Source of the DNA: an uncultured Bdellovibrionales bacterium
GTDB taxonomy: Bacteria > Bdellovibrionota > UBA1018 > CAIPTA01
DNA length: 64,000 nucleotides
Reading direction: 5' to 3'
NCBI GenBank assembly: GCA_964551325.1
Contig: CAZKBU010000001.1
Location: 385,184 to 449,183 of the forward strand
The notes below the pieces were generated by a model, which worked only from the letters and a program-made list of their open reading frames with translations, had not been told where the DNA came from and made no database searches. Made by a program: the position numbers and the translations under genes. Each line of letters starts with the position of its first letter. Position 1 is the stretch's first letter. Below are positions 1,818 to 47,868 of the stretch, one piece after another.

Positions 1818-3294
1818 GCCAGTACACCACGTATCCGTTCCACTCTTCCCGCTGGAGCCGGGGCAAACGCTTTCGTTCCACTGTTTCCATGTGGCCGTGA
1901 AGCGGAGTGCCCACACGAGTGATCCAAAATGGGCGCGTACCCACATTCCAAAAATCTGCAATGCGGTGGGGTGCCGTCTTCACCACCTCGTCGAAAACGA
2001 TTCTTTGCGGCATCCGGGCAAACACCTGATGAACCCAGTCGTCGTCGGTGTAGAAATGGGTCGAGCCCTGAAACCAGTCACGGGATTTGATTCTTTGCCA
2101 AAGCTCTTGATGAGGCGGGCGGTTCCAGTCGCCGAAGCTGCGGATGATTTTCATGGGCAGAAGCGCAACCATTGCCGCCAGCACGAGACCGAGCGCCGTC
2201 TTTGCATGAGCCGCCTCCACTTTATCGGCCAATCGTTGCAACGCCATCGCCTGGAGAAAAATCAGAAAGAGATAAGTGGAGCCGATGTAACGATCATCAA
2301 GAGGAGTTACGGCGAACATCAGTGTTAATAGATAAATCACGGAGAAATGCCCAAGTAGCCCGGCCACCGCAAACCAAGGCTTTACGCGCCCCCCAATTAG
2401 AGGCCACAGCGAGAAAGCGGAAACGGCGGCAAGAAACCAAACACTACCCAAACCCCAGCGTTGGAGCGTGTGTTCAAACGGTGTCCACAACCGATCCCAC
2501 AGAAAAAACGTGGGCTGATAGTGCCCGGCGTTTTTTCCAGTCATCAGTCGGTTTCGAATCATCCACAGAATTACCGGCGCGATTCCCACGAATCCCGTGA
2601 GCACGAGCCGTAGCCCGGCGCCGATCCAGCCACGCTCCTTCGCGAATTTCCACAAAGGGAAAAGAAAAAACACCGCATTGGCCAATCCGTTCCATCGAAC
2701 CGAGGACACAAGAAAAAGAAGGATCCATGCCGTCCACGCGTCTCTGCGGTTCCAGCCGCGATCCCGCAGGTCGAAACATTTGATAAACACCCCCAACGAA
2801 AGCGCGGTGAACAGCGTTTCCGTGAGCAAGGAAGGGAACATGTAGACGTAGGTGGGAAACACACACAAAAAAAGCAGCACCCCAAGACGAACCAGCGCAC
2901 TCAGGCCAAGCCGAAGCCCCGCCTCCCGCACCATCCAACAGAACAGAATGATCGCTACCGATTGGGCCACCATGGCGCTCGCCATCGAATCGCGAATAAA
3001 AAAGTAAAATGCGGCCAAATAAAGGGCGAATCCTGGGGGATAGATCGCATAGATCTCCCGCTCCGGCAGGTAGGAATAGGAAGGCCAGTTAGTCCAGATA
3101 AAGAGCGTACCGTGATCCACGAGATTCATCGCGGCGGTGAGATATTGGGCCGAATCCGGAGAGATAATGAAAATGTCTACCCAGCGCGATACGAGAAATG
3201 CGCAACCCAGCCCGAATCCCGCGAGCTCCAGAAATTTTTCGTGGCGCTGGAACCACTCCACCAGCCTCTGCCAGCGAACCGCGTAGGAATTCAT
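1792..3294 (-). CDS. GT-C superfamily glycosyltransferase (ArnT/PMT-like, GT39/GT83 family), a 500 aa polytopic membrane protein.
   Basis: About 11 TM helices with the N-terminal loop pattern of ArnT/PMT-family lipid-linked sugar transferases. It lies next to the GT2 polyprenyl-P-sugar synthase. Confidence 0.7.
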   Translation of the reverse strand: MNSYAVRWQRLVEWFQRHEKFLELAGFGLGCAFLVSRWVDIFIISPDSAQYLTAAMNLVDHGTLFIWTNWPSYSYLPEREIYAIYPPGFALYLAAFYFFIRDSMASAMVAQSVAIILFCWMVREAGLRLGLSALVRLGVLLFLCVFPTYVYMFPSLLTETLFTALSLGVFIKCFDLRDRGWNRRDAWTAWILLFLVSSVRWNGLANAVFFLFPLWKFAKERGWIGAGLRLVLTGFVGIAPVILWMIRNRLMTGKNAGHYQPTFFLWDRLWTPFEHTLQRWGLGSVWFLAAVSAFSLWPLIGGRVKPWFAVAGLLGHFSVIYLLTLMFAVTPLDDRYIGSTYLFLIFLQAMALQRLADKVEAAHAKTALGLVLAAMVALLPMKIIRSFGDWNRPPHQELWQRIKSRDWFQGSTHFYTDDDWVHQVFARMPQRIVFDEVVKTAPHRIADFWNVGTRPFWITRVGTPLHGHMETVERKRLPRLQREEWNGYVVYWLTSGAAGP

Positions 3295-3899
3295 TCGACC
3301 TTGAGAATTTGGATCAAACCATTGAGAAGATGAATCTGGCGGTAACAGTCGAAAACCGCCTCGTGTCGAGTGCCTTCGATTTTCGGTCCCAGCTTCTCCG
3401 CTTCCTTGAGAAGTTTGTTGATCTCATTATGACCCTTCACGTTCGCCGCCAACTGCAGGGCGCCGCTGATTTCGTAAACGCGATAATGGCAATCGCCTAC
3501 CAGCTTGTCATTTTCGTAACGAGCGGGAACGATGTAGCCGTGGTGGGCGAGAAACGGAATGTCGAAAATCCCGGCGTTCCATCCTGCGAAAAAAATATTC
3601 GGAGGACGCGAACCGCCATCGGCACAAAACTGAAGAATACGCGCCCTCACCTCGTCCGACGAAAGGCGTGGCTCCTTGTTGCATCGCTCATAGATCTCCT
3701 TCATATGATCCTGAGCGAACTTGGTGGTGGGTTTTCTCGACGTCCCCTGAAAAAGACTGAACTCTCGGCCCGCCTCCCACTTTCCGTCCTTGAATTTCAT
3801 CTCCACCAAAGCGATCTGCAGCACCTCCTCGTGCGCCGGGTCAATTCCGGTGGTCTCGATGTCGAGCATGAACATACTGTTGGGAATCGGAGCTGCCAT
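3291..3899 (-). CDS. DEDDh-family 3'-5' exonuclease (DnaQ-like domain protein).
   Basis: The MLDIETTG Exo I motif is near the N-terminus and a later H-x4-D motif is present. Length is 202 aa. Confidence 0.7.
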   Translation of the reverse strand: MAAPIPNSMFMLDIETTGIDPAHEEVLQIALVEMKFKDGKWEAGREFSLFQGTSRKPTTKFAQDHMKEIYERCNKEPRLSSDEVRARILQFCADGGSRPPNIFFAGWNAGIFDIPFLAHHGYIVPARYENDKLVGDCHYRVYEISGALQLAANVKGHNEINKLLKEAEKLGPKIEGTRHEAVFDCYRQIHLLNGLIQILKVE

Positions 3900-4724: not shown

Positions 4725-5950
4725 AAAATCCGCTGAATCTCGCTCTGATTCTTCTCTCTCTCGGCACGGTGCTGTTCGTTGCCCTCTTACGCCCCCACGG
4801 CTTTCAGTGGGACCTCTTGGTTTTCTATCGCGCGGGGCTTGCGTGGCGCAATGGCCTAAACCCTTACGACTTTCAACAGCTGATCACCGCAGGGCTTATC
4901 GATCGTCCCGCTGAATTTCTCACCTTCACTTATCTTCCCTTTCTGGCGGCGGTCTTTGCCCCACTTTCATTCGTATCCTTTTCCGTGGCGGCGGCGCTTT
5001 GGATCGCGATCAAAGGTCTGTTTTTCGCCCTCTTCTGGAAATCGGCTACGGTGTTTCATCGATTCGACCGATCATCGACCCTGGATCTTTGCGTGCTAGT
5101 GCTCGGTTTCAACTCCGCACTTTTCTCCGATCTACTTTCCGGAAACACTTCGATCATTCTCTGGGCGCTTCTCTGGTGGGCCATTCGGCTAATATGGAGC
5201 GAGAAATTCTGGACGAGTGCTTTCTTGATAGGGTGCGCAGCCACTGTGAAGCTGCAACCAATTCTGCTATTGGCACTTCTTATTTTTGTGCCGAAAAAGC
5301 CAAAGTGGGGACCCGCCATAGGTGGCGTCACGGCCTTCGTTTTGGTGATCATGGCAAACGCGCTGCTCTGGCCGGAAATGTTCCAGTTGTTCCTGCATGA
5401 AGTTCGGCAACGCGCGGCCCTCGAAAGAGGAATTTTAGCTCCTTCCCTTTTCGCACTCTGTTCCGACGCGTTTGACCAATGGAAAAACATCTCCGTAGTG
5501 CCAGAAGCTTGGAAACAACTCAGTGGATGGTTTCCCGTAGCTCTATATGCAGTTTTTTCGTTACCCATTGCGGGGCTCACAGTTCATCGCCTCCGCCGGT
5601 CTCAGACTTTGGAAACGTCTCCGCACTTGGGTGTGGCGTTAGTCCTCCTCGGTTGGATTTTGTTGGTTCCCCGCCTCAAGTCCTACGACTTCGTCCTTCT
5701 GCTTCCGGTGGCAGCCTGGGTTTTGAAAAATTCCGTTGGCACCGCCAGGCACCTTCTCGCTGCTTTGATTCTGATCCCGGTGCTGATCCCTATTGTGCAG
5801 GGACCCGTGGAGATTTTTTCGGTAGCCCAGCTCGGAGTGACCAAGAAACTTTTCTATCTCATCTATAGTTACCTCCCCTGGTTTGCCGCCCTTGGCCTTT
5901 GGTGGCAGCTCATTCGAGCGGAACGTGATTTCAATAAGTTACCCGGCTAG
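4721..5950 (+). CDS. Polytopic membrane protein, DUF2029/GT87-like putative polyprenyl-P-sugar dependent glycosyltransferase.
   Basis: 409 aa with about 10 TM helices and a topology reminiscent of GT87/DUF2029 mannosyltransferases. A 4-nt overlap with the upstream methyltransferase suggests an operon. Confidence 0.45.
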   Translation: MKNPLNLALILLSLGTVLFVALLRPHGFQWDLLVFYRAGLAWRNGLNPYDFQQLITAGLIDRPAEFLTFTYLPFLAAVFAPLSFVSFSVAAALWIAIKGLFFALFWKSATVFHRFDRSSTLDLCVLVLGFNSALFSDLLSGNTSIILWALLWWAIRLIWSEKFWTSAFLIGCAATVKLQPILLLALLIFVPKKPKWGPAIGGVTAFVLVIMANALLWPEMFQLFLHEVRQRAALERGILAPSLFALCSDAFDQWKNISVVPEAWKQLSGWFPVALYAVFSLPIAGLTVHRLRRSQTLETSPHLGVALVLLGWILLVPRLKSYDFVLLLPVAAWVLKNSVGTARHLLAALILIPVLIPIVQGPVEIFSVAQLGVTKKLFYLIYSYLPWFAALGLWWQLIRAERDFNKLPG

Positions 5951-6147
5951 CGCCTCACCCCTTCCCCCTCCCGAACGCTCAAGTCGGCCAGGTTTAACAG
6001 GAGCATTTGCCAAACCCCGTGCCACCGGCCGAGAGATCTACACTGGTCTTATATGCCTGAAATCACGCTGTTTTTTCGTGTGTCAGCCGGATCTACAGGG
6101 CCGAAGCGTAAAGATTTTCGACAGTAACAGTGTAAAGCAATTGAGTA

Positions 6148-6176
6148 TTTACAAGGGGTTCGCACCGCGTTAAAAC
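6148..6176 (+). promoter_or_regulatory. Candidate sigma70-type promoter (TTTACA-N17-TAAAAC) for the small peptide gene.
   Basis: Read directly from the sequence: TTTACA at 6148-6153, a 17-nt spacer and TAAAAC at 6171-6176. It lies about 77 nt upstream of the ATG at 6253. Confidence 0.3.
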
Positions 6177-6252
6177 TGGCCCCGCTGTTGCGATACCTCT
6201 TTGCAAACAAAGCGGTACGTAAGCAGCAAACAAAGTAAGAAGGACCCAACCC

Positions 6253-6381
6253 ATGAAGAAGATCATCACCGCTGTAATGGTACTCGCTGGAATCTGGTTC
6301 GCCGCTAACTACACCGTGAAGGTGGAAATCTCCGCTAACCAAGCGCAGGCAGATTGCGGAGAAGAAAACGGCTGCCGATAA
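6253..6381 (+). CDS. Small 42 aa peptide MKKIITAVMVLAGIWFAANYTVKVEISANQAQADCGEENGCR. It has an N-terminal hydrophobic (signal or TM-like) segment and a C-terminal C-x5-C motif.
   Basis: Hand-translated because it is below the ORF-track length cutoff. AAGGA Shine-Dalgarno sequence 8 nt upstream of the ATG. The stop lies 1 nt from the stop of the convergent cyclase gene. A paralogue exists at 45375..45500. Confidence 0.5.
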   Translation: MKKIITAVMVLAGIWFAANYTVKVEISANQAQADCGEENGCR

Positions 6382-6382
6382 G

Positions 6383-8434
6383 TTAGGCGGAAATTTTTCC
6401 GGTCTTTACTTGGCCGGATAGTTCGAAAAAGAAAAGGTCTCGGGTGCCCACATCGCGCACCGAGGCCTTTTCTCTTTTAAGAAGCTCAAATCTTCCCTTG
6501 GCCCCAAAGACGAGTTTCTCTTCCAGCACAAGCACAGATTTTGACTTCTCGCAGAGAGCCTTTTCACATTCCAAAATTCGCGCCACATCTTTAAACCCGG
6601 TTTCTCCCGGCGCATCTTCAAAATCCTCGAAGCGCTTTCCAGAAACGGTTTTATAGATGGGATGAATGCCGCCCGCTACGAGGGCTGCCCGAAAATGAAT
6701 GGGCGCGCCGGATTCCTTTTCAAATTCCACGCCCATCTTTTCCATCGCCTGGAGCGCATCGAGCGCCTTAGTCAACACCTGCGCCGACTCACCGGGGAAA
6801 AATCCAAAAAACGAATCACCGCCACTCGAAATGTGCTCACCGCCATGGGCCTTCATCACCCCGGTGGCCGCCTCACACCAGCGAGTGGGAAGTTTTGTGG
6901 CGAGGCCTTTTTCGGCGCTCACATCATAGAGCCTGCTCGAAGCTTTCAAATCCACATGAAGCAAAATTCCTTGGAACACGCGCTGCTCTTTAGCCATCGG
7001 ATCGTGAAAGCGGGAGCCCACCAAAGTTTCTTGCACGAAATCGAATTCGCGATAGTCGCGAAAGATAAAGGCGCCCAAGATGGCAACCAGCAAAAACTGC
7101 AGAGGCCGGTGATAAACTGCCTGCAATCCGATCAAACCATTTCCAAGGAGCCCAGTTTGAATCAAATACATTCCGAAAATAAACCCCAACACAACCCCAA
7201 ATTGCACCGTCCGCTTGGCTCGCAATTCCATCTTGCGGTCACCACCCCGACCCAATGCCAGGCGCTTTACAAATTCTGCTTGTGAAAAGCACGCCAGCGC
7301 ACCTACAAAATACATGAAAGGCACAAGCCACTTCGCTAACTGAGCGCTCAGGAAAAAGAAATCGCTCCCCTGTGTGGCCGATCGATAGGCCACCGTGAAG
7401 GCGATGAGCCCCACACCAAAGACCCAATAAACTGTATCTTTCCTCGCTCGGGCATAAGCAAGACCAAGAACCGCACCCAAAACTCCTTCTGAAAACCTGA
7501 GCCCGAGATCCGTGAGGTAGAAATCCGAAATCGACATCGTCCACTTCACCACGCCCCAATGCATGATCTGAATCGCGCACAAGCAAAGCGCAAACAAGCT
7601 AAACGCCAGATACTCCGCCCGATCGGGTACGCTCGCCCACAAAAACAAGAACACTGCGAAAACCACCAGACCCGTGATCCCAAAGGCCAAGGGCCGCGCA
7701 ATCGTGGTGGTCACCCACAAGTTTCTAAAATCCTTCGCACCCTGCTGAGAAAACACTCCAGTGGGATAGGGCGCACCCACCGCCAGCGGCCACGCGGATC
7801 CCAAAGTATGCGTAACCTCCACCGCCACGAGCACACCGCTCGCGCGAGCCCAGTCGGCAGGAGTCAAAGCAAAAGAAACAGGAAGGAAATCATTCCCGTC
7901 ACCAGAACGGCGAATGTCCCCGTTCACGTAAATCCGATAGGTCGCATTGATGTGACCCACCACCACGTCCCAGGCCTCGCCACCAAACGGTCCGCGCCAG
8001 CGCGATCCGTCGAGCCAATAGCCCGCCCAGAAGCGTGTGCCCTGGGCGGCACGGGCGCGCATTGTGAAATCCTTATCCGCCAACGAAGCCTTGGCCGTTC
8101 GCAGCGGCGAACTCACGGGTGAAGCGTAACAACTCGCGCCACCGCCACACTCCGGTCCGCCATCCCAAACCACCATCCAATCGGCGCGGGGGATCTCCAA
8201 AGCCGGCCGCGACGCGAATGCCTCTTCAAAAAACTTTTTGATCGGCGCGGTGAATCCGAGCGCGATCACCGCCACTAAAAAAAACAGCATGGCAAAATCC
8301 ACCATGCGGCCGCGGCGCACGTATTCCCGCCAGTCCACGCCCTTGGGCCGAGCCAATAGCTCACCGATTCGATAGAGGGGCTCGCGTACAAATCGAAAGA
8401 AATTCATGCCTCTTCTCATCGGAATTCCGAGCAT
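6383..8434 (-). CDS. 7TM-DISM receptor fused to a class III adenylate/guanylate cyclase domain.
   Basis: N-terminal TM helix, an extracellular domain of about 200 aa, a 7-TM block, then a C-terminal cyclase-like domain (HVD..., GGDSF, RAALVAGG). The ORF-track start at 8647 would overlap the nitroreductase gene, so a Met near 8434/8419/8407 is the more likely start. Confidence 0.7.
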   Translation of the reverse strand: MLGIPMRRGMNFFRFVREPLYRIGELLARPKGVDWREYVRRGRMVDFAMLFFLVAVIALGFTAPIKKFFEEAFASRPALEIPRADWMVVWDGGPECGGGASCYASPVSSPLRTAKASLADKDFTMRARAAQGTRFWAGYWLDGSRWRGPFGGEAWDVVVGHINATYRIYVNGDIRRSGDGNDFLPVSFALTPADWARASGVLVAVEVTHTLGSAWPLAVGAPYPTGVFSQQGAKDFRNLWVTTTIARPLAFGITGLVVFAVFLFLWASVPDRAEYLAFSLFALCLCAIQIMHWGVVKWTMSISDFYLTDLGLRFSEGVLGAVLGLAYARARKDTVYWVFGVGLIAFTVAYRSATQGSDFFFLSAQLAKWLVPFMYFVGALACFSQAEFVKRLALGRGGDRKMELRAKRTVQFGVVLGFIFGMYLIQTGLLGNGLIGLQAVYHRPLQFLLVAILGAFIFRDYREFDFVQETLVGSRFHDPMAKEQRVFQGILLHVDLKASSRLYDVSAEKGLATKLPTRWCEAATGVMKAHGGEHISSGGDSFFGFFPGESAQVLTKALDALQAMEKMGVEFEKESGAPIHFRAALVAGGIHPIYKTVSGKRFEDFEDAPGETGFKDVARILECEKALCEKSKSVLVLEEKLVFGAKGRFELLKREKASVRDVGTRDLFFFELSGQVKTGKISA

Positions 8435-44560: not shown

Positions 44561-45124
44561 TCACAAATAGACCTTCACGCCGCAGACTTTGTGGATGTCC
44601 TTTAGAGTCGGGTTTCGTGTCACTAAATAGGCGCCGTGATCCAGGGCCATTTGAACCAGTTCGGCGTCCACGGTCGACACATTTCGTCCCTTGCCATAGA
44701 GGTGTGATTTCAAGGTGGCCACTCTTTTCCAGCGCCCCCCGTCGGCGGGGATTTTGGGGATTCGGAATAAAATGGCGTCGACGTCCTTAAGAACCGGCCC
44801 CAAGTCGGCATCAGCGGATAGTTCGGCGGCCACCATGTCGGGGACCCGCAGTGCGCCCGCGAGAAGCGCGAAATCGAGCACGGGGATTTCTTCTTTGGAT
44901 AAAAGCCAGTTTCGCAGAGCGGAAGTGTCGGCGAAGATCACCATGCTCTCCGGCGCTTTCCTCTGGAGCCGTGCCAGGATGTTTCTCGCCTCCAGGCGGA
45001 AAATGTGGTCGAGGCCCTCCACGAGAGTTTCGGTGATTCCCTCACGGGTCGACGCTTGGGCCGCTGCCAGAAGGGACTCGGGAAGGTTGGCCGTGATGCG
45101 CTTAATTGTGCCCTGGGATTCCAT
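44561..45124 (-). CDS. PIN-domain protein (VapC-like) with an N-terminal extension of about 55 aa resembling a ribbon-helix-helix antitoxin.
   Basis: PIN acidic residues (VIFADTSAL ... [25 protein letters not shown]). N-terminal segment [13 protein letters not shown]... Confidence 0.55.
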
Positions 45125-45191: not shown

Positions 45192-45211
45192 GTATTGATT
45201 TGGATCAATAC
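45192..45211. promoter_or_regulatory. Perfect 20-bp palindrome GTATTGAT-TTGG-ATCAATAC matching the CRP/FNR-family box TTGAT-N4-ATCAA.
   Basis: Read from the sequence. It sits in the divergent region between the PIN gene and small peptide gene 2. Confidence 0.35.
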
Positions 45212-45374
45212 ATTTGGGCCCAACCATCTAAAATCACTGGTGAAAAAACGACACCCCTCCCCGCTGCGCGGCATAATTCTGGCATGGCTCGCAAAGGATA
45301 CATCTTTGATTTCAAATGGTTACGTACGGTCCAGACCTTGCGACATTAGCCCCTGAACCCATCACGGAGGTCCC

Positions 45375-45500
45375 ATGAAAAAGGTACTTACGGTTCTGGC
45401 CCTAGCACTCACGATCGGCACCGCCGCCTACGGACTGGCTCAGTCTGTGGACGCTGGCGCCGTGACGGCGCAGGCCTGCCAAGGTTCTACCTATTGTGAG
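45375..45500 (+). CDS. Small 41 aa peptide MKKVLTVLALALTIGTAAYGLAQSVDAGAVTAQACQGSTYCE. It has a signal-peptide-like N-terminus and a C-terminal C-x5-C motif.
   Basis: Hand-translated. GGAGG Shine-Dalgarno sequence 5 nt upstream of the ATG. Followed by an intrinsic terminator. Paralogue of the peptide at 6253..6381. Convergent with the second receptor cyclase gene. Confidence 0.5.
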
Positions 45501-45520
45501 TGAAGACTTTCATTAGGATT

Positions 45521-45554
45521 GAGGGGGGCCTCGAAAGGGGTCCCTCTTTTTTTT
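45521..45554 (+). terminator. Rho-independent terminator (GC-rich hairpin plus a T8 run) after small peptide gene 2.
   Basis: GAGGGGGGCCTCGAAAGGGGTCCCTC followed by TTTTTTTT. Confidence 0.5.
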
Positions 45555-47430
45555 ACGCCGCTCGAAGCACGGAGCGGGACAAACGCAAAATTCGCGCGCG
45601 GAATTTCTGGCCCTTCACCAAGTACGGAATGGGCTCTGAAACCGTCATCCCCGCGGGCACTTCCACGGACTCATCCACCAACACGGTCCCCGCCTCGGCA
45701 GCCGACTGCAAACGAGCCGCCCGATTGATCGGCTCCCCTAAGAAACTAAACTCTGCGCTCTTAAAGTGGCAGGTCACAGATCCGCTCGCTACGCCCACGC
45801 GGAATCGCAGACGCTCATCAAAGAGGGAAAGATCGGCAATCCGAGAGGCCGCATAGAGAGCGTCTTCCTCCTGACCCAACCCCCAGCGATAGACAGATCC
45901 ATCACCCGTATCGGAGATCTTTTCCCCGCCCAAGGAGGTCACGATGGGCTGCAAGGAATCTTTCAGAACCTGATTTAAGCGATCGCGCTCTTCCGCTTTG
46001 GCCACGGCCAATTGTTTGGTGTAGCCCACGGCATCCACCACCACGATCACCGCATCCGACTTCACCAGAGCGTGCTGGGCTCCAGACGCGGCCAGCCGAG
46101 CCACGTCGCCCGGAAGCATTTCTTTTGAACGCAAATACACGCCTTGCAGCCCACGGAAGTCCGCCACCATCAATGCGCCGAGGGCCGTGAAAATTCCCGC
46201 GTCGAGAAGTTCAGGATAGCGCACCACCAAGAACTGAAAGAACGCTCCCGCGTTGGCGGTTTTATGAAAGAACGCCACACCCAAACACAGCGCCAACACT
46301 CCCAATTGTGCCGCTCGGTGGCGCACACCAACCACGAATCCCAGGTGAATGGCTACGGCAGAAACCACCACCATTGCGGGAAGGAGCGCCACCCAGGGCA
46401 TCCAGCGATAGGAGGCTTGGAAAAGCGGAATCCACTTCGATTCGCCAGCAATCACGCCCGCTATCAAGGGCACTAAGAAAAGGAATGCGGACCATGCGGC
46501 CGCAAATCCCAATCCCCGTCGATTGAACCGCAGCATTTCCGCCACGAAAAGCGGCACCATTGCGGTGGCGAGCACTTCGAAGAAAAAGATCGCGCTGTTT
46601 CGGAACAGGTAATCTTCATAAAAGGGATTTAAGCGCCAGTATCCAAATGCGGAAAGCCCGCTCGCCAAGGTGTAGCCGGCGAACCATAGGTACTCCCGAC
46701 GAAGCGGCATGAACACGAAGAGCGCCGCAAAGATCAAAAACAGTGAGAGCTTGAAAGCCACCGGTAACAACGGTTTAGCAATAGTTTGAAACTGATAGTC
46801 ACGCTCTTGATTTAGAAGGATTCGTGAGCGGCCTACTTGTACGGGGTTGAAGTGCACTATTCCTCTATACGGACTCGCCGAACGTCCAACTTGAACGACG
46901 AGATCCAGCTCCCCGCCCCGACCCAAATGCAACGGCTGCAAACGATGAAGCGCAAAGGCCACTTCTCCCCCGGACCCCACGAGTTCCCCGTTGATCCATA
47001 CCGCATGGGGGCCCTTGATGCTTCCAAGAGAAAGCGACAAGTCCTCGCCGAGCAAATTTTCCGGCACGCGCACGCGAGTGCGGTACCAAATCTCATCGGG
47101 CAGATCTCGTGCCGCCAAAGGCTTCGGCACTTCCACGCGTGACGACTTTTCCCAGCCGCGGCCGACCGCTCGGCAAGGCAGCGCACGTCCGGCGACCGTG
47201 CAAGTTTCAGAGGCACCAGCGGAAAATTCCCACTCCCCCTCCAGGCGCAAGCCCGAGGGGTCCACGAATCGTGCCGGATCCACGTACCAACGTGCGGCGA
47301 AAATCGTAACTGCCACCAAACCCAAAGCGACCAGACCTAGCGCCACACGCGGCGCCAGACCCAATGGACGCGGACCATGACGACTCACGGTTTCAACAAC
47401 GGCAGCCAGTTTGCGAAGGGTCTTTCCCAT
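45553..47430 (-). CDS. 7TM-DISM receptor fused to a class III adenylate/guanylate cyclase (paralogue of 6383..8434).
   Basis: N-terminal TM helix, an extracellular domain, a 7-TM block, and a cyclase domain with DAVGYT and SDTGDGSVYRW motifs. Confidence 0.75.
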   Translation of the reverse strand: MGKTLRKLAAVVETVSRHGPRPLGLAPRVALGLVALGLVAVTIFAARWYVDPARFVDPSGLRLEGEWEFSAGASETCTVAGRALPCRAVGRGWEKSSRVEVPKPLAARDLPDEIWYRTRVRVPENLLGEDLSLSLGSIKGPHAVWINGELVGSGGEVAFALHRLQPLHLGRGGELDLVVQVGRSASPYRGIVHFNPVQVGRSRILLNQERDYQFQTIAKPLLPVAFKLSLFLIFAALFVFMPLRREYLWFAGYTLASGLSAFGYWRLNPFYEDYLFRNSAIFFFEVLATAMVPLFVAEMLRFNRRGLGFAAAWSAFLFLVPLIAGVIAGESKWIPLFQASYRWMPWVALLPAMVVVSAVAIHLGFVVGVRHRAAQLGVLALCLGVAFFHKTANAGAFFQFLVVRYPELLDAGIFTALGALMVADFRGLQGVYLRSKEMLPGDVARLAASGAQHALVKSDAVIVVVDAVGYTKQLAVAKAEERDRLNQVLKDSLQPIVTSLGGEKISDTGDGSVYRWGLGQEEDALYAASRIADLSLFDERLRFRVGVASGSVTCHFKSAEFSFLGEPINRAARLQSAAEAGTVLVDESVEVPAGMTVSEPIPYLVKGQKFRARILRLSRSVLRAA

Positions 47431-47463: not shown

Positions 47464-47868
47464 AAGTGGTGGTGGAACTGTAAGCCGGATTCTGTACCTG
47501 GTTTCCCAGGCGACAATCATTCCTCTAGGCCACCCGTTACCGTGTGGCTCCAGCGATACTACCCGCACACTTTGGGCGAGCAGCCCTCAGTCGTGTGCCT
47601 ATTTGATCTTGCTCCTAGCGGGGTTTACCGAGCCGCACGAATTACTTCGCACGCTGGTGGTCTCTTACACCACCGTTTCACCCTTACCTGATCCCCGTGA
47701 GGGGCCATCGGCGGTTTGCTCTCTGTTGCACTTTCCGTAACCGGAAACGAACTCACGTGTAATTCGTTTTCAATCCCTGGCCGTTAGCCAGCGCCACGCT
47801 CTATGGAGTCCGGACTTTCCTCCCCCCGGTCGAGCCGGGCGGCGATTGTCCATTCCACCACCAGGTGT
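47464..47868 (-). ncRNA. rnpB: RNase P RNA (bacterial type A).
   Basis: The reverse complement contains GGAGGAAAGUCCGGACUCC, AGUGCAACAGAGAGCAAACCGCCGAUGGCC and GGGGAUCAGGUAAGGGUGAAACGGUGG. P1 is formed by GGUGGUGGAA/UUCCACCACC, followed by a U7 run. Confidence 0.85.

Follow-up and report, generated by a model that had tools for sequence, protein, structure and literature searches.

The 64,000-nucleotide (nt) stretch of an uncultured Bdellovibrionales bacterium analyzed here (contig CAZKBU010000001.1, positions 385,184 to 449,183; hereafter the window) carries two genes for 42-amino acid (aa) peptides, peptide 1 (6253..6381, plus strand; MKKIITAVMVLAGIWFAANYTVKVEISANQAQADCGEENGCR) and peptide 2 (45375..45503, plus strand; MKKVLTVLALALTIGTAAYGLAQSVDAGAVTAQACQGSTYCE), whose upstream regions share a 30-nt block of DNA. 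We lean towards the explanation that this block represents homologous promoter-region DNA of paralogous, probably σ54-dependent peptide genes, and not a self-contained operator consisting of a palindrome and TACGTA. The copies would thus resemble each other because the promoter regions are paralogous, which is preferred over a shared operator. Paralogy of the genes, the pattern of conservation, the geometry of the promoter boxes and the fact that orthologous loci have lost both palindrome and TACGTA were directly observed; we infer that σ54 RNA polymerase uses the boxes and that common control of the two genes, if any, would be exerted by σ54 together with an enhancer-binding activator rather than by a classical operator protein.

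Identification of a shared block upstream of two paralogous peptide genes

A sequence-only reading of the window had described a TTTG-CAAA palindrome followed by TACGTA upstream of each gene. Its coordinates were confirmed by reading the window (CTTTGCAAACAAAG at 6199-6212 and TACGTA at 6216-6221 for peptide 1; TTTGATTTCAAA at 45305-45316 and TACGTA at 45321-45326 for peptide 2), and the composite TTTG-N2-4-CAAA-N3-4-TACGTA indeed occurs twice in the 64-kb window compared to 0.00 expected occurrences. The similarity extends beyond this motif; the plus-strand copies GATACCTCTTTGCAAACAAAGCGGTACGTA (6192..6221, enclosing the motif at 6199-6221) and GATACATCTTTGATTTCAAATGGTTACGTA (45297..45326, enclosing the motif at 45305-45326) are identical at 22/30 positions without gaps, which represents the top ungapped 30-nt pairing between the two intergenic regions. 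Among 300 dinucleotide shuffles, the best 30-nt pairing averaged 17.8 (sd 0.88) and did not exceed 21. The degenerate block pattern GATACNTCTTTGNNNNCAAANNGNTACGTA matched only these two places in the window, even at 3 mismatches, and no further block copies with ≤3 mismatches were found in the 64 kb. Moreover, a survey of 11-mers in 9 independent upstream regions of the peptide family identified ATACCTCTTTG (score 65) and TTCAAATGGTT (score 64) as the two highest-scoring words (null: best score 61.4 ± 0.95, maximum 63), and these two are the two halves of the block. The shuffles and the k-mer survey therefore uphold the proposal that non-random cis DNA is common to both upstream regions, while the bases that had been named as the operator did not hold up (see below). 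A gapped alignment of 6161-6221 with 45262-45326 reached a score of 30 (shuffles, 21 ± 3; 8/500 reach the score); upstream of the block the two regions show only marginal homology, and the flank by itself is not significant.

The components of the motif behave differently from the block. TTTG..CAAA alone was found 22 times in the window, near the background of 14.4 ± 4.3 (3/100 shuffles reach 22), and TACGTA, with 9 copies vs 2.0 expected, is 4.5-fold over-represented. The other seven TACGTA copies (568, 16209, 25599, 30273, 32790, 40756 and 51960) are all located inside long open reading frames (ORFs), at least five of them as in-frame TAC-GTA (Tyr-Val) codons, and none of the seven has the palindrome beside it. 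Away from the peptide sites, over-representation of TACGTA is a codon-level effect and not a regulatory motif.

The two intergenic regions, which had been regarded as otherwise unrelated, both precede paralogous genes. Each peptide has an MKK start, then a hydrophobic segment, an A-x-A-(x)-C motif and Cys residues at 35 and 41; judging from sequence comparison, peptides 1 and 2 are paralogues that originated from duplicated gene pairs. An exhaustive profile search combined with an index search identified 27 clusters of this family, with lengths of 39-44 aa, although a few members were called with an extended N-terminus and then measure 59-73 aa. The family pattern, MKK...A-x-A-C-x(2-7)-C, was seen in loci including L011, L012, L020, L021, L022, L025, L027 and L028. 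Type A members (peptide 1-like) carry ..TLNIKIEVSTNAAHACG..GC and type B members (peptide 2-like) carry ..AQSVNAKSVTAQAC..C; no Pfam or NCBIfam family was found for the peptides.

Probable σ54-type promoter boxes

Alignment of all upstream regions showed a conserved box with σ54 geometry, the distance of which to the start codon is constant. The box has the family consensus YGGYNY-N5-YYGC; GG and GC are invariant in the aligned table except for one AG (L011), their neighbours are pyrimidines and TT, and the five-base spacer varies freely across lineages. GG-N10-YYGC was present in 15/16 orthologous upstream regions. Peptide 1 is preceded by the σ54-type -24/-12 promoter TGGCCCCGCTGTTGCG (6177..6192, plus strand; GG at 6178-9, GC at 6190-1) and peptide 2 by the σ54-like box CGGTCCAGACCTTGCG (45327..45342, plus strand; GG at 45328-9, GC at 45340-1); in both, the GG (-24) and the GC (-12) are spaced by exactly 10 nt. 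With +1 placed by convention 12 nt after the C of GC, transcription would start near 6203 for peptide 1 and near 45353 for peptide 2. The peptide-1 box is found at the equivalent place in L020, L012, L028 and L021, and the peptide-2 box corresponds in position to TGGCGCAAAGCTTGCT of L025 and TGGCATCGAGGTTGCG of L022. As aligned, the type-A boxes are TGGCCCCGCTGTTGC (window peptide 1), TGGTATTGCTCTTGC (L020), TGGTATTGCCCTTGC (L012 and L028) and TGGCACAGAAGCCGC (L021), and the type-B boxes are TGGCGCAAAGCTTGC (L025), TGGCATCGAGGTTGC (L022), AGGCCTCTGTCTTGC (L027), CGGTCCAGACCTTGC (window peptide 2) and CAGTATGCTTCTTGC (L011).

A position weight matrix (PWM) of the family, built from six non-window loci, placed 6177 at rank 1 and 45327 at rank 7 out of ~128,000 positions in the window. 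An independent PWM was built from 29 experimentally defined Salmonella sites (PMC3844500), which themselves range from 14.9 to 20.9 bits. Its top hit was the family box in 9/12 regions, with scores of 12.7 bits in L021, 12.1 in L025 and 9.2 in L022 (reached by 2, 1 and 8 of 500 shuffles, respectively) and of 5.7 bits for the peptide-1 box (25/500 shuffles); all family boxes scored below the training range of this matrix, whose consensus is enterobacterial. Similar to σ54 (RpoN) promoters (TGGCACG-N4-TTGCW), the family has GG and GC one helical turn apart, T/Y and TT flanks and a variable spacer, and its box is conserved in distant orthologues at a fixed distance to the start codon. Unlike the enterobacterial consensus, some members carry TGGTAT, CGGTCC or a G at -11, and a conserved GATACCTCTTTG, which is not part of the σ54 consensus, is found beside the -12 element. 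These sequence features suggest that the family, and peptide 1 with it, is probably σ54-dependent; the case for peptide 2 appears weaker and would depend mainly on positional homology.

Loss of the palindrome and TACGTA in orthologous loci

The motif was unchanged in strain-level copies (L001-3 and L004-7). Among diverged upstream regions of orthologous peptide genes, both the palindrome and TACGTA were absent in 10/10, and the motif as originally specified is therefore not conserved upstream of orthologues. In the peptide-2 orthologues L008 and L009 the site reads GATACAcCTTTtATTTCAAATaGTTACatgCGG (CTTTT...TACATG in L008), and in the peptide-1 orthologue L010 it reads GATACCTCTTTtCAA--CAAGCGGTACGTtAGC, with CTTTT, a 2-nt deletion and then TACGTT. 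Comparison of the window with L008, where the peptide-2 intergenic region is 87% identical overall, showed 18/22 matches in the motif and 4/6 in TACGTA, compared to 15/16 in the σ54-like box; comparison with L010 for peptide 1 showed 18/23 matches plus the 2-nt deletion in the motif, compared to 16/16 in the σ54 box. In these nearest diverged relatives, the motif, at 78-82% identity, is the least conserved part, while the adjacent GG-N10-GC boxes are 94-100% identical. Moreover, L012 and L028 share an identical TTGGTATTGCCCTTGCGATA yet are unalignable directly downstream, which shows that it is the promoter that is under constraint, not the region of the palindrome.

With regard to known regulators, the sequence of the block fits the operator consensus of neither CRP (TGTGA-N6-TCACA) nor FNR (TTGAT-N4-ATCAA). 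Like operators of CRP, FNR and MarR proteins, it presents short AT-rich inverted repeats near a promoter; unlike them, its palindrome arms are not conserved, their spacing shifts by 2 nt in L010, and no regulator gene adjoins the peptide loci. Given the absence of conservation, the differing position relative to the promoter boxes and the lack of a further copy in 64 kb, the palindrome plus TACGTA finds no support as a common operator. A shared operator for both peptide genes is unsupported, and it is unlikely that these bases are a dedicated repressor or activator site. The sequence-only reading had picked the right place but the wrong bases.

Position of the block relative to the promoter boxes

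Relative to the conserved promoter boxes, the block is positioned ~45 nt apart between the two genes. The peptide-1 block starts directly after the -12 GC and spans about -11 to +19, whereas the peptide-2 block precedes the positionally conserved box and spans about -56 to -27. In the peptide-1 block, the left half (GATACCTCTTTG) is a type-A signature that adjoins the -12 element; the corresponding sequences are GATTCCTATTTG in L020, GATACCTCTTCG in L012, GATAGTGGTTTG in L028 and AATACCTATCCG in L021. In the peptide-2 block, the left half (GATACATCTTTG) represents this type-A signature as well and follows a decayed TGGC...GC box. This σ54-like remnant, TGGCATGGCTCGCA (45280..45293, plus strand; TGGCAT..GCA), has a GG-GC spacing that is 2 nt short, ranks 1130 with the family PWM and pairs with the peptide-1 promoter in the gapped alignment. 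Since left halves of the GATACATCTTTG type are absent in other type-B lineages, this type-A-like segment and its decayed box suggest that the peptide-2 left half may have originated through promoter duplication or turnover, or through gene conversion from a type-A promoter.

The right half of the peptide-2 block overlaps a conserved upstream element of type B, ATTTCAAATGGTTAC (45309..45323, plus strand), which matches at 14/15 positions in L008, is an identical 15-mer in the AT-rich orthologue L025/L026 and is recognisable in L011 (AAATCAAACAGTTAT) and L027; peptide 1 matches it at only 8/15 positions. In the 11-mer survey of the family, this element ranks second in conservation. The peptide-2 block would therefore consist of the type-A-like GATACATCTTTG segment joined to the type-B element. 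The distance between this element and the -24 box is 3 nt in the window, L008 and L011 and 13 nt in L025 and L027, which is exactly one helical turn more. Further copies in the window were not significant (4 hits vs 1.3 expected). The sequence ATTTCAATAAGTTAC at 5928-5942, which differs from the type-B element by 3 mismatches, is located in the 3' end of a GT87 gene, ~250 nt upstream of the peptide-1 promoter.

The type-B element may be a DNA-bending site, similar to those of integration host factor (IHF), or an activator site, and a DNA-bending protein bound there could possibly assist activation. IHF sites have an A/T-rich tract 5' of their core. Compared to the degenerate IHF consensus core WATCAANNNNTTR (PMC8942017), peptide 2 carries TTTCAAATGGTTA (12/13, preceded by CTTTGATT), L011 carries AATCAAACAGTTA (13/13), L022 carries AATCAGCCCTTTA (12/13) and peptide 1 carries AAACAAAGCGGTA (11/13). 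As in σ54 promoters with an IHF bend, the IHF-consensus-like site of type B is found between an inverted repeat and the box; unlike the classical arrangement, the site in the window lineage abuts the -24 box and is centred near -37. Classical IHF sites generally lie farther from the -24 box.

Several findings weigh against σ54-dependent paralogous promoters as the explanation. With the Salmonella PWM, the peptide-2 box (CGGTCC...) scored -3.6 bits, a poor enterobacterial match, and the L012 and L028 boxes scored only 2.8 bits, which is not significant; moreover, boxes were partly picked by eye prior to scoring. Neither rpoN nor a gene for an enhancer-binding protein (GAFTGA and ESELFG signatures) was found in the window, which covers 64 kb of a 513-kb contig, or in the fetched loci, and the presence of σ54 in the host genome is an assumption. 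Peptide 2 also has competing promoter candidates, namely CGGCATAATTCTGGCA at 45268-83 (7.7 bits with the Salmonella PWM, lost in L008), which overlaps the remnant TGGCATGGCTCGCA, and the σ70-like ACGACA-N18-CATAAT at 45248-77, which reads TTGACA-N18-CATAAT in L008. Footprinting among close relatives covered one diverged lineage per gene. Finally, in the register set by the left halves, the right block halves match at 11/18 positions (p ~0.003 in a hand-made binomial estimate), which would be compatible with a real element common to both, for instance CAAA-N2-GKTAC.

Alternative explanations for the shared block

Both regions could hold a true binding site for one and the same protein, comprising the block or only a core of it (for example GATACNTCTTTG or CAAA-N2-GKTAC). 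This protein, a transcription factor restricted to the lineage or a nucleoid protein (e.g., IHF), would overlap the start at peptide 1 and bind upstream at peptide 2. We consider this doubtful, even though the block is statistically real and unique within the window and its halves are the most conserved upstream 11-mers of the family, since no more copies were found in 64 kb, no candidate regulator gene is nearby, and the two copies differ by ~45 nt in their position relative to the conserved boxes. An imperfect 24-nt palindrome, TACCTCTTTG-CAAA-CAAAGCGGTA (6194..6217, plus strand), read from the sequence and also seen in the fold, overlies the predicted σ54 transcription start of peptide 1, as an operator might. 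L010 keeps the palindrome arms TACCTCTT/AAGCGGTA, but its 2-nt deletion shortens the centre and alters the half-site spacing, and neither L008 nor L010 retains TACGTA or the G of TTTG. Retention of GATACATCTTTG upstream of peptide 2, although the adjacent σ54-like box has lost its spacing, and the residual agreement of the right halves (11/18) would also fit a common site, as would the single mismatch of TTTCAAATGGTTA from the IHF consensus (PMC8942017) and the perfect match of L011; these have to be weighed against the absence of the left half in other type-B lineages and the low agreement (8/15) of the type-B element in peptide 1. A direct repeat (GATAC...GKTAC, 22 nt apart) or dimeric operator was also considered and is weakened by the same deletion in L010.

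It is improbable that the block is a promoter of the σ70 family, with GATAC(A/C) as the -35 element, a spacer of 18 nt, TACGTA as the -10 element and a start ~7 nt past TACGTA. Such a promoter would explain the 6+18+6 nt structure of the block with its most conserved bases at both ends, and the resulting 5' untranslated regions (UTRs) of 24-41 nt are plausible; L011 has TATATT at the position of TACGTA with TTAACA 18 nt upstream, and L025 has TACAAT. However, GATACA matches TTGACA at 3/6 positions and TACGTA matches TATAAT at 2/6, without a T at -7, and a promoter scan reported nothing at the block. The spacer is 16 nt in L010, the -10 element would be TACATG in L008, and in type-A orthologues the distance from GATA to GGTA varies from 7 to 21 nt, which indicates that the block ends do not behave as one promoter. 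Promoters of other classes were rejected by eye. The σ28 (FliA) consensus is TAAAGTTT-N11-GCCGATAA; the window spacing is 1 nt short and L012 and L021 fail, with a partial fit in L020 (AAAAGTTT-N11-TGCGATTC) and L028. A promoter of the extracytoplasmic function (ECF) type (AAC...CGTA) was dismissed because of its spacing and its failure in orthologues.

Even less credible is a function of the block as RNA, i.e., as a shared 5' UTR hairpin or a binding site for a protein or small RNA that affects translation or stability. The peptide-1 block can form the hairpin UACC.CUUUG-CAAA-CAAAG.GGUA, the outer stem of which is kept in L010 despite the 2-nt deletion, but the peptide-2 copy has no comparable stem and that of L008 is weaker still. 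Upstream σ70-like promoters (6148-6176 and 45248-45277) could place the block in the transcript; with a σ54 start near 6203, however, the transcript would lack the 5' arm of the hairpin. Moreover, the UTRs fold no better than shuffles (z -0.74 to +0.97), and no Rfam family was found at either site. Coincidence, with neither common origin nor function, can practically be dismissed, as none of the 300 shuffles reached 22/30, the composite occurs twice vs 0.00 expected and both copies precede paralogous genes at comparable distances, even if TTTG..CAAA is near background and TACGTA is over-represented in the window.

Other elements in the upstream regions

An inverted repeat, TGTAAA-N10-TTTACA (6132..6153, plus strand), precedes the peptide-1 promoter and may be an enhancer or activator site; the segment 6116-6153 is conserved at 37/38 positions in L010, compared to 52% for the DNA farther upstream. 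Upstream of peptide 2, a perfect inverted repeat, GTATTGAT-TTGG-ATCAATAC (45192..45211, plus strand), is located between the divergent PIN gene and the peptide gene and holds a perfect FNR-type TTGAT-N4-ATCAA at 45195-45208, ~100 nt upstream of the block. Among orthologues the arms of this repeat are conserved and the spacer is variable; related repeats are found in L027 (GGTACTGATCAATACC) and L022 (GTATTGACCATAAAATAC). It could be an operator of the PIN/VapC gene or an enhancer. σ54 enhancers are usually located 70-150 bp upstream (PMC3844500), and the peptide boxes resemble σ54 promoters in having inverted repeats 50-160 nt upstream. Different candidate enhancers precede peptides 1 and 2, which speaks against a single activator site common to both.

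Just upstream of the σ54-like boxes are σ70-like hexamer pairs, TTTACA-N17-TAAAAC for peptide 1 (6148-6176) and the above-mentioned ACGACA-N18-CATAAT for peptide 2. Both peptide-1 hexamers are kept in L010, where the 17-nt spacer carries 4 substitutions. Tandem σ70-like and σ54-like promoters are possible. The divergent ORF upstream of peptide 2 (44561-45124, minus strand; 187 aa) shows a weak PIN/VapC match at residues 63-177. Orthologous loci have instead a separate ORF of 68-99 aa and a PIN protein of 127-138 aa, and the 187-aa ORF may be a fused or mis-started VapBC-like pair.

Convergent cyclase partners and a possible signalling role

In 10/10 distinct loci examined, a convergent gene for a membrane protein of ~600-690 aa was found 3' of the peptide gene; 2 of these 10 proteins end at a contig boundary. 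The partner of peptide 2 (45553..47430, minus strand) is a 625-aa membrane receptor-type class III nucleotidyl cyclase, and that of peptide 1 (6383..8419, minus strand) is a multi-pass membrane protein of 678 aa, which can be aligned to the type-B cyclases along its entire length; four partner proteins align end to end. The C-terminal domain of the type-B partner was identified as a class III nucleotidyl cyclase through a match to 3mr7 (E = 6e-12), the L027 partner matches Pfam PF00211 (2e-8), and the outer domain of the type-B partner bears a faint likeness to GH2-type sugar-binding modules. A profile search of genome contigs with the cyclase alignment yielded only distant relatives of the ecto-domain in unrelated phyla; metagenome searches found nothing with the type-B peptide alignment and two distant loci, which were left unused, with the cyclase alignment.

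Peptide 2 and its convergent cyclase gene are separated by an intrinsic terminator (45521..45548, plus strand), which is kept in orthologues. Between the stop codons of peptide 1 and its partner there is 1 base (6381-6385), and any peptide-1 terminator must therefore fall inside the coding region of the partner; convergent transcription of this pair could lead to interference. Directly upstream of the type-B cyclase gene, on the same strand and with ~35 nt between them, is a bacterial RNase P RNA of class A (47465-47861, minus strand; 300 bits). L021 also carries a third peptide gene of the family in divergent orientation (3261-3380, minus strand; MKKVILVALALSVLAFGALAANSVTSSEQAAYACGENCN), with a TGGCACG -24-like box upstream but without GC at -12, which is followed on the same strand by a gene for a 1030-aa protein without a Pfam match.

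Comparison of the window with L004 showed that the flanking genes are ~99.9% identical and that divergence is concentrated at 45200-46900. In this segment, 7/10 nt are changed in the Cys-Cys loop of the peptide (QGSTYCE vs QGSLACE), 21/30 amino-acid changes of the cyclase fall in residues ~150-350, the terminator is strongly diverged, and the cyclase segment has up to 26 differences per 100 nt. On sequence grounds, this mosaic resembles either a cassette in which ligand and receptor diversify together or a patch of recombination. The peptide loop and the receptor segment diverge together, as in pherotype loci, which raises the possibility that the adjacent cyclases have the peptides as their ligands.

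Pheromones such as AgrD and ComC act through the receptors AgrC and ComD, and natriuretic peptides and guanylin activate receptor guanylyl cyclases. The peptide loci resemble these systems in that a membrane receptor is genetically tied to a small precursor, which looks exported and has a hypervariable Cys-Cys loop at its C-terminus, and, as in receptor guanylyl cyclases, the output domain of the type-B partner is a cyclase, here of class III. Unlike in AgrD/AgrC and ComC/ComD, peptide and partner genes are convergent and do not form one operon, and neither a histidine kinase nor a dedicated processing or export gene is found nearby. By analogy, we tentatively suggest that the peptides might be exported disulfide-loop signals sensed by the adjacent seven-transmembrane (7TM) receptor-type class III cyclases, and that these would form a σ54-driven module from peptide to cyclic nucleotide with two paralogous pairs per genome.

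Taken alone, the motif is ordinary and of little weight, and the pairing of peptide and cyclase is the more interesting lead. The present case shows that paralogous promoter sequence can mimic the operator of a regulon and that a few orthologues are enough to tell the two apart. It also yields a testable σ54 promoter model, with boxes at 6177-6192 and 45327-45342, for a peptide family that had not been described before; its members have a Cys loop and a length of 39-44 aa and are paired with receptor-type class III cyclases, a group of receptors whose ligands are in general not known. If the signalling role were correct, both signals would be expressed in response to one input through the shared promoter block and, if the peptides are ligands, these loci would represent experimentally tractable examples of bacterial cyclic-nucleotide signalling controlled by peptides.

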